In this document: one piece after another, positions 18,447 to 23,864 of the stretch
How the letters are laid out: every line of letters begins with the position of its first letter
How positions within the stretch are numbered: position 1 is the stretch's first letter
NCBI GenBank assembly: GCA_043745255.1
Contig: JAYTTC010000250.1
Location: forward strand, 1-27,235
Direction of reading: 5' to 3'
DNA length: 27,235 bases
DNA from: Verrucomicrobiales bacterium
GTDB taxonomy: Bacteria > Verrucomicrobiota > Verrucomicrobiia > Limisphaerales > UBA11320
The notes under the pieces: model-generated
What the model was told of the DNA's origin: nothing
Databases searched by the model: none
Seen by the model: the letters and a program-made list of their open reading frames with translations, nothing else
Position numbers and translations under genes: made by a program

Positions 18447-19556
18447 ATGAACCTGACCATCGCGAAGGAGCAGTTGCTCGCAGGGTTGCAGTCGGTGCAG
18501 AATGTCGTCAGCACGCGCACGACTCTGCCCGTGCTCTCGAATGTCCTACTGCGCGCCGAGCAGGATCGCCTGGTGCTCACTGCGACCGACCTCGACGTTA
18601 CCATCTCGTGCGCCGTCACCGCGACCATCAAGCGCCCGGGATCCACCACCATTCCGGTAAAGAAGATCTTCAGCATCGTCCGTGAGCTGAGCGTTGCTGA
18701 GATCGAACTGGAGACCGACGACAAGAATGTAACCAGCGTTCGAGCGGGGGCTTCCTTCTTCAAGATCCGCGGTCTGGGGCCGGAAGAGTTTCCGGCGATG
18801 CCCAAGTTCGCGGAGGATCGCAAGGTGGAGCTTCCACAGGAGAAGATGAGGACGATGCTCAAGCGAACCGCGTTCGCCACCTCCTCCGACGAGAGCCGCT
18901 ACGTGCTCAACGGAATCTTTTTCAGCCTCAAGGAACAGAAGCTCACACTGGTGGCCACCGATGGACGCCGACTCGCCATGGCCGAGGAAGAGGCCGATGT
19001 CTCCGAGAAAAGCCAGGGCGATTTCATCGTTCCAAGCAAGACGGTGACCGAGCTAGGTCGACTGCTTTCTGACAAAGGGCAGGTCCAGTTGCTCGTGGGT
19101 GAGAACCAAGCGTGTTTCAATCTAAGCGACGAGAAGGGCACCGGTGTCACCATCATCACCAAGCTGATCGAGGGCAACTATCCCAACTATCGACAAGTGA
19201 TTCCGGGCGAGGCGAAGGAACGGATCGCCATCGGACGCGAGGAGCTGCTGCACGCACTCCGGCGTGCCGAGATCATGACCAGCGAGAAGCAGAACTCGGT
19301 GAAACTCGCGTTCACGAAAAACAATCTGGCCATCACCGCCAACTCGCCCGATATCGGTGAGGCGCAGGAATCCCTGGCGATTAACTACAAGGGTCGCGAT
19401 GTCAGCATCGCCTTCAACCCGGGATATCTTCTGGATCCCTTGACCGCCCTGGCGAACGATGAGGTGTTCCTTGAGCTGATCGATGAGCTCAGTCCCGGGG
19501 TTCTCAAGATCAATGGACCGTTCCTTTACGTTGTCATGCCCATGCGGCTGAGCTAA
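18447..19556 (+). CDS. dnaN: DNA polymerase III beta sliding clamp
   Basis: TLPVLSNVLL, ATDLD, R.VLNG, VATDGRRLA, LIEG.YPNY..VIP, IAFNP.YL.D.L, YV.MPMRL. Confidence 0.97.
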   Translation: MNLTIAKEQLLAGLQSVQNVVSTRTTLPVLSNVLLRAEQDRLVLTATDLDVTISCAVTATIKRPGSTTIPVKKIFSIVRELSVAEIELETDDKNVTSVRAGASFFKIRGLGPEEFPAMPKFAEDRKVELPQEKMRTMLKRTAFATSSDESRYVLNGIFFSLKEQKLTLVATDGRRLAMAEEEADVSEKSQGDFIVPSKTVTELGRLLSDKGQVQLLVGENQACFNLSDEKGTGVTIITKLIEGNYPNYRQVIPGEAKERIAIGREELLHALRRAEIMTSEKQNSVKLAFTKNNLAITANSPDIGEAQESLAINYKGRDVSIAFNPGYLLDPLTALANDEVFLELIDELSPGVLKINGPFLYVVMPMRLS

Positions 19557-19748: not shown

Positions 19749-19774
19749 GCATCCGTTTTGAGGCCGCATCCGTA
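19749..19774 (+). promoter_or_regulatory. Candidate ECF (SigK/RskA-type) promoter for the DUF4331 operon
   Basis: GCATCC-N15-CCGTA, 75 bp upstream of ATG 19850. Resembles my recollection of the mycobacterial SigK motif CCATCC-N15-CCGAA. Confidence 0.45.
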
Positions 19775-19849: not shown

Positions 19850-21457
19850 ATGAAACAACGAACCTTTCGCCTCCTTGCGACCACTGCCTTCGCGGGCTTG
19901 GCTGCGCTCACACTCAGGGCTTCCAGTCACCGAGAAGCTCCCATGATCACCAGCATGCCCAAGCTGGACTGCTCGGACTTTTACGCTTTCAACAGCTACG
20001 AGCCGGGCCGTTCCAACTACGTGACCCTCATCGCAAATTACATCCCGTTGCAGGATGCCTATGGCGGTCCAAACTATTTCACCATGGCCACCAATGCGGT
20101 GTACGAGATTCACATCGACACCGATGGTGACGCGGTGGAAGACCTCACCTTCCAGTTTCATTTCCATCAGGAGTATCGCGGGATCACGCTGGGCATCGGG
20201 CCGGAGGGGAATCGACGTACCAATGCTATTCCCCTAGTCGTTGCAGGCCAGGTCACCAAGGACAGTTCTGCAGCGCTCAACTTGCAGGAGCAGTACACCC
20301 TCGTGGTGTTGGAGGGGCCTCGTCGCAACGCGACTTCGAAGATGCCTGTCTTCAATCTGCAAACGGGTGGGATCGATTTCATCAAGCCGGTTGACAATAT
20401 CGGAAACAAGACGCTTCCAGATTACACGGCCTACGCAGACCAGTACGTGTATGAGGTCCTCATTCCCGGTTGCCCGGACAAGGCGAGGATGTTCATCGGT
20501 CAGCGCAAGGATCCATTCGTGGTCAACCTGGGGGAAACTTTTGACCTCCTCAACATCAGCACCAGCCCGCTTGGGCCGGTCGATGCGAACAAGGACAGTC
20601 TAGCTGATAAGAATGTGACCTCTATCTGCCTGGAGCTTCCCAAGAGCTGCTTGCGCAAGGGAGCTCACAACGTTATCGGAGCCTGGAGCACCGCCAGCCT
20701 GATCCAAGGGCATGACTTTGTTCAGGTCTCCAGACTCGGAATGCCTTTGGTTAATGAGGTGGTGATTGGTCTTCCGGATAAGGACAAGTTCAACGCGAGC
20801 GAACCGAAGGATGATCCGCAATTCATTGATTACATCACTCACCCTACCTTTCCAGCGTTGGTCGAATTGCTCTATGGAGCTGCGGGAGCCAAGGCTCCCG
20901 CAATCCCGCGCAATGATCTGGTAGCGGTCTTTGCCACCGGCCTTGCCGGGCTCAACGCAAACGGCAGCGTAGGCGAGATGTGCCGTCTCAACCTGGACAT
21001 TCCTGCCCGCGCCGCTGCCGAGCAAAAAAATCTAGGAGCTCTCGCGGGGGATACGTCGGGCTTCCCCAACGGACGGCGTCCCGGAGATGATATCGTCGAC
21101 ATCGTACTTCGCGTTGCGATGGGTGCACTCGTGCCCGATGCCCCAAACAAGGACCTGCCCTTCACGGATGGTGCTTATGTGGATGCCAGTTTCTTTGGCG
21201 AGAAGTTCCCGTATCTGCGGCCGCCGCTGAAGGGTTCTCCCAATGATCCGACCATTGAAATCCTGCTCAAGACTGCCGCCACTGCGGCCGGGCCCTACCA
21301 GAACGCCACCGGTGTGAAGTGGAACGGGGATCAGCAAACGCTCACCGCCGACAAGACTTCCTCTCCAAACGGATTCTACAAACTGGAGGCGAATGGGAAG
21401 GTGGGTTTCAACGGGATCCGCCTCGACGGGGATAAGGTGAAGCTGGGACTGAAGTGA
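19850..21457 (+). CDS. Secreted DUF4331 domain protein with an extra C-terminal tail
   Basis: Signal peptide then SSHREAP, D.SDFYAF.SYE, LIANYIP.Q...GGPNYF, F.GQRKDPF, QVSRLG.PLVNE, GFPNGRRPGDD, FPYL..P: all DUF4331 hallmarks. Confidence 0.92.
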   Translation: MKQRTFRLLATTAFAGLAALTLRASSHREAPMITSMPKLDCSDFYAFNSYEPGRSNYVTLIANYIPLQDAYGGPNYFTMATNAVYEIHIDTDGDAVEDLTFQFHFHQEYRGITLGIGPEGNRRTNAIPLVVAGQVTKDSSAALNLQEQYTLVVLEGPRRNATSKMPVFNLQTGGIDFIKPVDNIGNKTLPDYTAYADQYVYEVLIPGCPDKARMFIGQRKDPFVVNLGETFDLLNISTSPLGPVDANKDSLADKNVTSICLELPKSCLRKGAHNVIGAWSTASLIQGHDFVQVSRLGMPLVNEVVIGLPDKDKFNASEPKDDPQFIDYITHPTFPALVELLYGAAGAKAPAIPRNDLVAVFATGLAGLNANGSVGEMCRLNLDIPARAAAEQKNLGALAGDTSGFPNGRRPGDDIVDIVLRVAMGALVPDAPNKDLPFTDGAYVDASFFGEKFPYLRPPLKGSPNDPTIEILLKTAATAAGPYQNATGVKWNGDQQTLTADKTSSPNGFYKLEANGKVGFNGIRLDGDKVKLGLK

Positions 21458-21513: not shown

Positions 21514-22701
21514 GTGAACCGATTAAGAAATAGGGTTGGGGGATGGATGCTCGGGATTCTGTTGGGATTCGCGACCCAACAGAGCCTGGCATCTCCCCGG
21601 GTGCCCACGGACGATTCCGAGGTGCTCGAACGTCTGCCCCAAGTCCCGACGCTTTTCGCCGGTCGAGGCAAGGCTGCGGTCGCGCGGTCGCCGGATCCAA
21701 TAAGCGCCGCGATCGAAGCCCGTCGCTGGTTAGAGCTCAACCGTGCTGAGTCGGATCCCCGGTATCTTGGCCGCGCGCAGGCGGTGCTCTCTCCCTGGTG
21801 GCATCAGACCGATCCACCCATTGAGATCCGATTGTTGCGCGCGACGGTGCGTCAGAGTCTTCATGATTTTCAAGGGGCGATCACCGACTTAAATGAAGTT
21901 CTTCGTGTCGATCCTTCCAATGCCCAGGCGTGGCTCACCAAGTCCTCGATCCACACGTTGCGTGGCGAGTGGGTGGAGGCTTGCGAGGCCGTGGTTCGGC
22001 TCACCCGGCTCACGAGTCGTCTTGTGAGTGCGACGGCGGCCGCTTCCGTGTTGAGCGTGCGCGGCCAGGAGACGGAGGCCTGTGGGCTGCTGCGCAATGC
22101 CCTTCGAGAAAATCCCACAGCACCCGGGTCGGTCCGCCTCTGGGCGCTCACCCTGTTGGGAGAAGTGGACACCTGGATGGACCGTGATACCGAGGCTGAG
22201 CTGCATTTCAAGCAGGCGATGGAGCTGGGCCTCCGGGATGGCTATCTGCTCGCGAGCTATTCTGACTTCCTACTGGGCCAGCGCCGGTTCGAGCAGGCCG
22301 CTAGGCTGGTCGAACCCGAGACCCGTTCCGACAATCTGTTGCTGCGGCTCGCCCTTGCGGAGTCGAACCTCAATCCATCGCCTCCCCTGTTTCAGGAACA
22401 TGTCAGAATCCTCGGAGAGCGGTTTGCCGCCGCCCGGGCTCGTGGAGAGGCGATCCACCAACGGGAAGAGGCTCGCTACCAGCTTGAACTCCTCCATAAG
22501 CCCGCACGCGCCTTGGAACTGGCCCGCGAGAATTGGGGGATTCAAAAGGAACCCGCCGACACGAAAATCCTACTCGAGTCCGCCCTGGCAGTGCAGGATG
22601 CCGCCACCGTTGAACAGGTTCGCGATTGGATGAAGACCAGTCGGTTCGAAGATCGACGGATCCTCCGGCTGCTGGAATCCCAGCAACCGGCTTCTCGATG
22701 A
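21514..22701 (+). CDS. Secreted tetratricopeptide repeat protein (DUF4331/HupE-associated type)
   Basis: Signal-like N-terminus; P..D.EVLERLP, SDPRYLGRAQA.L.PWW, A.V.QS.HDF, DP.NAQAWL, DNLLLRLA, H.REEARY, LA..NW..Q.EP.D. Start is GTG 21514 or ATG 21544. Confidence 0.82.
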   Translation: MNRLRNRVGGWMLGILLGFATQQSLASPRVPTDDSEVLERLPQVPTLFAGRGKAAVARSPDPISAAIEARRWLELNRAESDPRYLGRAQAVLSPWWHQTDPPIEIRLLRATVRQSLHDFQGAITDLNEVLRVDPSNAQAWLTKSSIHTLRGEWVEACEAVVRLTRLTSRLVSATAAASVLSVRGQETEACGLLRNALRENPTAPGSVRLWALTLLGEVDTWMDRDTEAELHFKQAMELGLRDGYLLASYSDFLLGQRRFEQAARLVEPETRSDNLLLRLALAESNLNPSPPLFQEHVRILGERFAAARARGEAIHQREEARYQLELLHKPARALELARENWGIQKEPADTKILLESALAVQDAATVEQVRDWMKTSRFEDRRILRLLESQQPASR

Positions 22702-23864
22702 GATTGGCGATTGAGATTTTGACTTCGCATCCACTGCGGCGGTGGGTGCGCGCTGCCTTTGTACTCGGAGTCATGCTTCAGTGTGCCGCACCTCGAGCCT
22801 TCGCTCATTCCTCGAGTGACGCGTACATCACGCTCACTTTCACCAATCAGTCCGTCCTGGGCCGTATTGACCTGGCACTGCGGGATGTTGATGCGTTGTT
22901 CGGGTTGGACGATGATGGCGATGCCCATGTCACCTGGGGAGAGCTCAAGAAACATCAGACGGAGCTCTTTCAATACCTCGGCACGAATCTCGTTTTTCGG
23001 GGGGAGGGTCGAGCTCTCTCGCTCGGTTCCCCGGAACTCTCGGTGGATGAGCATGCAGGTGCGATGTTCGCCGTGACTCGTTTCCTCCTTCCTTCCGCCG
23101 CGACAACTCGGGTGTTGGAAGTCGACTATCACTGCGTGTTTGAGGTGGATGGGTTGCATCGTGCGATCCTCAAGCTGGAGCGGGAGGGCAACGTGACGAC
23201 GGGCTTGTTCAGTCCCGAGCAAACGCATCTGCGTTTCGAGTTCAGCCTCCCAATCGGAGCCACCTCAGGACTGCAGAGTTTTATTCGAGATGGCGTGCGG
23301 CATATCTGGACCGGATACGATCACATCCTCTTCCTTCTCGCTCTCCTGTTGCCCGCAGTGGTCCGTCGTGAGCAGGGAACCTGGCAGGCTGTGACCGCCC
23401 TGCGTCCTGCGCTCTGGAGAGTGCTTCAGACTGTGACTGCCTTTACCGTGGCGCACTCCATCACTCTGAGCCTTGCAGCATTCAACCTGATCCACCTTTC
23501 CCCTCAGTTCGTGGAGCCGGTCATCGCGGCCAGCGTCGCGGTCGCCGCTGCCAATAACCTCCGTCCCTTCTTTCTCGAGCGCGGTTGGATGGTTGCCTTC
23601 GGGTTCGGGCTGATCCACGGATTCGGTTTTGCCAGCGTGCTCCAGGAACTTGATCTCGCAGGACAGTCGCTCCTCTGGCCCCTGCTCGGGTTCAATCTCG
23701 GTGTCGAGCTCGGCCAGGCCACTCTCGTGCTCCTCTTCGTTCCGCTGGCTTACGGACTTCGCCATACCCGCTTCTACAGTGTCGGTGCACTGCGATTTGG
23801 CTCGGTCGGAATCGTCCTCATCGCCACCGCTTGGTTCATCGAGCGCCTCATCACCGGGCACTGA
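22698..23864 (+). CDS. HupE/UreJ family membrane protein with an N-terminal extracytoplasmic domain
   Basis: ATGA overlap with the TPR stop. AFA|HSSSDAY; GVRHIWTGYDHILFL, FTVAHSITL, FGLIHGFGFA, FNLGVELGQ. Confidence 0.9.
   Translation: MRLAIEILTSHPLRRWVRAAFVLGVMLQCAAPRAFAHSSSDAYITLTFTNQSVLGRIDLALRDVDALFGLDDDGDAHVTWGELKKHQTELFQYLGTNLVFRGEGRALSLGSPELSVDEHAGAMFAVTRFLLPSAATTRVLEVDYHCVFEVDGLHRAILKLEREGNVTTGLFSPEQTHLRFEFSLPIGATSGLQSFIRDGVRHIWTGYDHILFLLALLLPAVVRREQGTWQAVTALRPALWRVLQTVTAFTVAHSITLSLAAFNLIHLSPQFVEPVIAASVAVAAANNLRPFFLERGWMVAFGFGLIHGFGFASVLQELDLAGQSLLWPLLGFNLGVELGQATLVLLFVPLAYGLRHTRFYSVGALRFGSVGIVLIATAWFIERLITGH

Follow-up and report, generated by a model that had tools for sequence, protein, structure and literature searches.

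The window analysed here, a 27,235-nucleotide stretch of DNA from a Verrucomicrobiales bacterium, carries a gene for a DUF4331 protein that is followed on the same strand by genes for an exported TPR protein and a permease. The features are as follows:

19749..19774, + strand: ECF-sigma-type promoter-like motif, GCATCC-N16-CGTA, which recurs upstream of homologous genes
19850-21457, + strand: DUF4331 ORF, 535 aa
19850..19921, + strand: Sec-type signal peptide of 24 aa, with a basic n-region, a hydrophobic core and Ala at -1, ending T-L-R-A
19922..19930, + strand: Ser25-Ser26-His27 (TCC AGT CAC), the predicted mature N-terminal Xaa-Xaa-His (ATCUN-type) tip
19934..19936, + strand: Glu at mature position 5, a candidate extra oxygen ligand (putative role)
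19922..21244, + strand: DUF4331 domain (PF14224), a beta-sandwich with a helical part (Pfam match and AlphaFold2 model)
21245..21457, + strand: beta-rich C-terminal extension of about 70 aa, common to close (Verrucomicrobiota-annotated) homologues
21547..22701, + strand: exported TPR protein, whose start may instead be a GTG at 21514
22698..23864, + strand: HupE/UreJ-2 permease (PF13795) with an extracytoplasmic N-terminal domain, its start overlapping the TPR stop (ATGA)
22806..22808, + strand: codon for the permease's predicted first mature residue, a His that follows A-F-A, an arrangement shared with anglerase domains

Upstream, dnaN (18447-19556) lies between a cysteine desulfurase gene and the DUF4331 operon, and dnaA is not beside it.

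The PF14224 profile matches residues 25-459 of the ORF (E 1e-135) with 453.7 bits against a curated cut-off of 27, covers profile positions 1-421, and places its position 1 on Ser25. In mature numbering, the residues kept across lineages are His3, Asp16, Asp19, Asp197, Arg271, Asp298, Arg385 and Asp389, while position 5 is Asp or Glu in all exported lineages seen and Asp or Ser/Thr in those that have no leader. The named close homologues belong to Verrucomicrobiota. The family as a whole comprises 6,260 clusters at 50% identity, with thousands of members; a literature search, conducted outside subscription papers, found no paper naming DUF4331 or PF14224.

The C-terminal extension of the window protein is a possible surface-sorting tail. 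In other lineages, DUF4331 carries a T9SS tail in 88% of one atlas cluster and a sortase-like anchor at locus L009, and an exosortase adjoins it at L056. Given these tails and anchors and the adjoining exosortase, DUF4331 may be surface-displayed. The promoter-like pattern GCATCC-N16-CGTA occurs upstream of 10 of 26 homologous genes against a 5% background, an eleventh occurrence having been left out as a tandem-repeat artefact; no promoter turned up in a sigma-70 scan. Some DUF4331 copies have sigma and anti-sigma-like genes ahead of them. At locus L065, a 7-base tandem repeat (TAATCCG units, at least 6 copies) lies about 300-350 bases upstream of the DUF4331 gene.

Cleavage of the leader was predicted with the -3/-1 rule and a hydrophobicity filter. 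Taken alone, the window protein is ambiguous: a cut after Ala24 puts Leu at -3, and the rule equally allows a cut after A-S-S, which would leave His at +1. Nor is a lone His at +3 remarkable, since a crude signal-peptide scan of the window's genome found one in 8 of 401 proteins (2.0%), a rate equal to the background frequency of His. The register therefore rests on homologues. In the window protein S-S-H-R-E-A-P directly follows the 24-aa leader, and this motif is invariant in 117 close homologues with an intact start, where the residue preceding SSH is Ala in 106, Gly in 10 and Ser in 1. These homologues have a small or aliphatic residue at -3 and no constraint at -2, as is typical where signal peptidase cuts. 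Distant lineages were sampled through plasmid records, genome searches and two further homologue searches, and over the whole set of leader-bearing homologues His at +3 fits the rule in 343 of 357 (close homologues, 104/113; cyanobacterial, 119/119; 50%-cluster representatives, 108/113; other loci, 12/12).

The competing register, with a cut after A-S-S and His at +1, would make DUF4331 a histidine-brace protein like LPMO, CopC and the anglerases, and it satisfies the rule in 112 of 113 close homologues. However, it needs an invariant Ser at both -1 and -2, while the pattern of a variable -2 and an Ala at -1 lies two residues earlier. It is also impossible where Asp precedes His, as in all 119 members of the cyanobacterial set (S-D-H), in which a cut before His fits 0 of 119; A-D-H forms likewise exclude it, as do Met-Ser-X-His forms. 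We regard this register as extremely improbable.

Leaderless DUF4331 proteins arrive at the same position by another route. In all 129 examined (120 of 120 proteins of one lineage and 9 of 9 loci of others), the start codon stands directly before Ser/Ala-X-His, giving M-S-N-H, M-S-H-H, M-S-D-H or M-A-D-H, and a purine-rich, Shine-Dalgarno-like sequence lies just upstream of most of these starts. Methionine aminopeptidase removes Met when Ser or Ala comes next, so the leaderless copies would also reach His3. The weight of this evidence lies in the number of lineages, since the large homologue counts include near-copies; some of the counts for positions 1 and 2 came from a search pattern that restricted those letters and are not independent evidence. 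The tip is best written X-X-His: positions 1-2 vary (SS, SD, AD, SN, SH, AS, AG), and position 2, Ser26 in the window, is S, D, N, H or G in the homologues read. The sequence-only reading had placed SSH after a 24-aa leader at 19922-19930 of the 19850-21457 ORF and had proposed that processing leaves His at position 3 throughout the family, to be checked on many homologues. Both points bear up by prediction, in 343 of 357 leader-bearing members and, through Met removal, in 129 of 129 leaderless ones. Its view of SSH as the family's hallmark needs amending, in that His3 is kept family-wide while the two residues before it vary and about 5% of distant homologues have no His. Collectively, these patterns make it highly probable that the predicted mature protein begins after Ala24 with His at position 3.

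In a quick tree, which leaves out one exported Pseudomonas copy, the exported proteins form four deep lineages and the leaderless proteins three; the processing route changes twice, and at least one of these changes is forced. In a search not anchored on His, six of roughly 120 representatives with an intact start had no His at +3; they mostly keep the core motifs and are nested in the SSH clade. No TPR or permease neighbour was found at these six loci, two of which lie on short contigs, and two of the six copies stand in tandem with a His-bearing paralogue (L053:3712-6994 and L055:3269-6195); the His-bearing member of the L053 pair carries a fused CHRD domain. We had considered His loss as a natural control for the permease linkage and ruled it out, since His-bearing copies of like divergence also stand without TPR or permease genes, one of them in the same gene neighbourhood as a His-less copy. 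His loss is thus tolerated in orphan DUF4331 and says nothing on whether the linkage needs the His. A separate clade with S-S-H-S-E-A-P (P0417, P0421, P0424, P0427, P0430, P0446, P0477, P0480 and P0490, the last at L078:48-1709) is confined to contigs of 1.6-2.5 kb that bear a single gene, and its signal peptides resemble those of eukaryotes; its members are probably transcripts of microbial eukaryotes.

The TPR and permease genes recur at other DUF4331 loci. Within about 7 kb of 20 exported, His-bearing copies, HupE/UreJ-2 was found at 15 and a TPR gene at 16; no permease was detected at 5 of these 20 or at 11 of 15 leaderless loci. The window permease, the only HupE/UreJ-2 copy in this assembly, has the architecture of the anglerase-HupE/UreJ-2 proteins (signal peptide, His1, extracytoplasmic domain and C-terminal PF13795), and a phmmer search of its outer domain against PDB sequences, where Ang-1 is 9GCE, gave no match. 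In Streptomyces and Nostoc, a permease gene comes after the exported DUF4331-TPR pair; its product has a His1 outer domain and, among NCBIfam families, matches nickel/cobalt efflux (RcnA) best, at a score below the family cut-off. His stands at +1 in every neighbouring permease read, these RcnA-like ones included; anglerase-type His1 domains thus occur on efflux-family permeases too. Importer-type HupE resembles the window permease weakly (E about 5e-4), though more than the RcnA-like proteins do. Directly downstream of 4 of the 15 leaderless copies lies a nickel importer, NiCoT in three (two of the three matches pass the curated cut-off) and HupE/UreJ in one. One further exported copy sits with DUF4198 and HupE/UreJ, and TonB-dependent receptors adjoin some copies. 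The linkage to HupE/UreJ that the sequence-only reading hoped to explain by the tip is therefore real at 15 of 20 loci and extends over three permease families, but many His-bearing copies have no permease neighbour.

Among side observations at these loci, Idiomarina sp. A28L (L003:9002-9553) has the His1 outer domain as a short ORF in which no permease part was detected, possibly a truncated gene. SLAC1/TDT-family channels follow leaderless DUF4331 twice, and thiamine-diphosphate enzymes lie nearby several times (loci with either neighbour: L047:4278-5318, L084:6008-6982, L045:4053-5954, L044:4592-6214 and L086:1-1077).

A permease gene beside its client is a known pattern for hydrogenase and urease. 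The Ni/Co permeases found here (HupE/UreJ, the NiCoT proteins HoxN/NicT and RcnA-like proteins) repeat the pattern in standing beside a presumed client, but that client is a family of unknown function rather than hydrogenase or urease. Neither urease nor NiFe hydrogenase was found in 9 of 18 DUF4331 carrier genomes; six of these nine have the permease, and two of the six are nearly single-contig. Absence of the two enzymes from the window's own genome was rejected as evidence, as completeness of the assembly is 82% and urease is present in all three congeners. A Ni-SOD search gave no match anywhere, controls included.

AlphaFold2 modelled the mature window protein with a mean pLDDT of 94.1 (77 over the first ten residues) and a leaderless member with 88.4 (53 over the first ten). 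The low confidence at the start, among the least confident parts of both models, is compatible with an accessible tip. For both models, the best structural match was residues 274-574 of Sas6 (PDB 7uwu; Z 7.7, rmsd 5.0, 198 residues aligned, below the Z 8 guide), a starch-binding CBM74 whose Ca-binding sandwich is related to CBM9; CBM9 itself (1i82) and DOMON-like domains (2ivf chain C, 1ulv C-terminal) followed at Z 5-6. These families resemble DUF4331 in that the matches start at residue 1 and in being Ca-binding beta-sandwiches with many Asp residues, and differ from it at Z 7.7 or less, rmsd 4-5 and 9-13% identity, with no sequence match. The models weakly suggest a CBM74/CBM9/DOMON-like fold. 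To our knowledge, no N-terminal His site is known in these families. Sequence searches of the PDB found no relative of DUF4331, Foldseek returned antibody fragments only (TM under 0.3), and a structure atlas search returned DUF4331 clusters only. A predicted complex of DUF4331 with the TPR protein, Zn and Ca included, scored 0.11 and was weighed on neither side.

The Sas6 match, obtained with both models, bears on whether a transition metal is involved at all. The amine and His3 might instead dock to finish or activate the fold of a carbohydrate-binding or structural envelope protein, with the permease linkage reflecting a shared stress regulon, as the ECF-type promoter and the many copies that have no permease would allow. 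Yet a Z under 8 may reflect merely a common sandwich, three permease families were recruited separately, and any accessible NH2-X-X-His binds Cu(II) or Ni(II) by its chemistry (PMC7701195). We consider a role free of transition metals improbable. From chemistry and conservation together, the X-X-His tip is likely a physiological metal site, with one Ni(II) or Cu(II) coordinated by the amine and His3, and DUF4331 is, as read from its sequence, probably a metalloprotein not described before.

Its geometry is less settled. The tip is ATCUN-like in its predicted positions, and we put a strict four-nitrogen ATCUN arrangement at about even odds. ATCUN demands no particular side chain at positions 1, 2 or 5; in DUF4331, position 1 is nearly always Ser or Ala, position 5 is nearly always Asp, Glu, Ser or Thr, and Asp16, Asp19, Asp197, Asp298 and Asp389 are kept across lineages. 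Such constraints would suit a site embedded in the protein and built from the amine, a carbonyl, His3, the position-5 acid and conserved Asp residues, rather than a four-nitrogen square; Ni-SOD, HypA and Zn phosphoesterases have N-terminal metal sites to which this could be likened. Against this, both processing enzymes also demand a small residue at position 1, the Asp residues may serve to bind structural Ca, as happens in CBM74 and CBM9, and in both models the tip counts among the regions of lowest confidence. We judge an embedded site quite unlikely; it overlaps in function with the acceptor model set out below and differs from it in geometry. Some of the conserved acids may bind structural Ca, and others could complete a site with the tip.

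Published affinities bear on the direction of metal transfer. For ATCUN sites, Cu(II) binding constants run from 1e11 to 5e14 per M, and Ni(II) is bound about 1e6 more weakly (PMC7701195); the anglerase Ang-1 has Kd values of 74 nM for Cu and 220 nM for Ni, which were obtained from thermal shifts of other proteins (PMC12537917). Cu(II) would therefore flow from the nanomolar permease domain to the picomolar tip; this argument covers Cu(II) only, as for Ni both affinities would be similar. In small samples, importers adjoin cytoplasmic DUF4331 and efflux-family members adjoin exported DUF4331, and a role for RcnA in providing cable bacteria with periplasmic Ni has been proposed (PMC11247825). 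Since permeases of known direction point to the compartment of DUF4331, the protein is favoured as acceptor. Nickel is slightly favoured over copper, since the cytoplasmic copies, which would not meet Cu(II), adjoin nickel importers.

On the permease pattern and these affinities, our leading model is that DUF4331 receives metal rather than feeding the permease, to which we assign a probability of roughly 0.45. Signal peptidase I would cut after Ala24 to leave a free amine on Ser25, two residues before His27. We infer the steps beyond this register: the free amine and the His3 imidazole, probably with two backbone amide nitrogens, would bind one Ni(II) or Cu(II), and the tip, carried on a rigid beta-sandwich protein, would be the site that makes DUF4331 a metalloprotein. 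The permease, its His1 outer domain and the TPR protein would load it with metal, and the loaded protein would act as an envelope stress-induced enzyme or as a tight metal sink.

The opposite direction would make DUF4331 a scavenger for import: its tip would capture Ni(II) or Cu outside the cytoplasm, and the metal would then reach the permease by way of the TPR protein and the His1 anglerase domain and be taken up. The operon with HupE/UreJ-2 at 15 of 20 loci is what such a scheme expects, anglerases have been proposed to feed these permeases (PMC12537917), TonB-dependent receptors are neighbours of some copies, and surface-sorting tails are found on many. It is inapplicable, however, to the leaderless cytoplasmic lineages, which keep the tip and adjoin importers; Cu(II) transfer from an ATCUN site to a nanomolar one would run uphill unless coupled to reduction; and 330-440 conserved residues with invariant Arg and Asp exceed the needs of a carrier. 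We think the scavenger role somewhat unlikely.

An extension of the acceptor model goes further. DUF4331 would be a hitherto undescribed enzyme that uses nickel (or copper), and its active site would be centred on the X-X-His tip which processing exposes on a DOMON-like sandwich, a His3 analogue of the histidine brace in LPMO. The TPR protein and the anglerase-permease would form a maturation system devoted to it, and the enzyme would exist in the cytoplasm, in the periplasm, at the surface and, apparently, as a secreted form in eukaryotes. We offer this as a speculative proposal, unlikely as a whole.

Known systems resemble this one in part. Few nickel enzymes are known, and most known natural ATCUN sites are in proteins and peptides of animals. 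Examples of such sites are those of serum albumin (D-A-H), hepcidin (D-T-H) and human Ctr1 (M-D-H) (PMC7701195). DUF4331 is like them in its predicted free amine, two residues and His3, exposed by processing and with no Pro at position 2 in the lists read. It differs, reading from sequence, in that the tip sits on a bacterial family of 330-440 residues with exported and cytoplasmic lineages, and in its extra conserved side chains (positions 1 and 5) and permease ties. The anglerases Ang-1 and Ang-2, described on HupE/UreJ-2, DUF4198 and DUF6702 proteins (Franco Cairo et al. 2025, PMC12537917), are likewise bacterial, exported and equipped with a metal site at the processed N-terminus, as predicted for DUF4331; moreover, the third gene in the window joins a His1 domain to PF13795, and DUF4198 adjoins DUF4331 at one locus. 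There, however, His is at +1, in a histidine brace, and in DUF4331 it is predicted at +3; the His at mature position 1 that marks the brace is absent from DUF4331 and present in the neighbouring permease. Because the anglerase search placed His immediately after the signal peptide, proteins with His at +3 lay outside its reach, and the paper mentions neither ATCUN nor TPR proteins (PMC12537917). Searches for His at +1 thus miss a class with His at +3, and DUF4331 is a likely partner for the recently described anglerase permeases. What the predictions describe is a familiar metal-binding motif, kept throughout a family of uncharacterised bacterial proteins that has a permease module of its own. 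This family holds His at +3 by two processing routes and has recruited three Ni/Co permease families, and its X-X-His tip offers an inexpensive first experiment on a domain of unknown function.

One chemical property of the tip touches on handling of the protein. Ni(II) cuts peptide chains upstream of Ser in the pattern (S/T)-X-H-Z (PMC3344860), which the window tip (19922-19933) fits. Ni-assisted self-cleavage was set aside as a natural route, since the signal-peptidase sites are conserved and Ala-X-His forms exist; N-terminally tagged DUF4331 constructs might nonetheless cleave on nickel resin.
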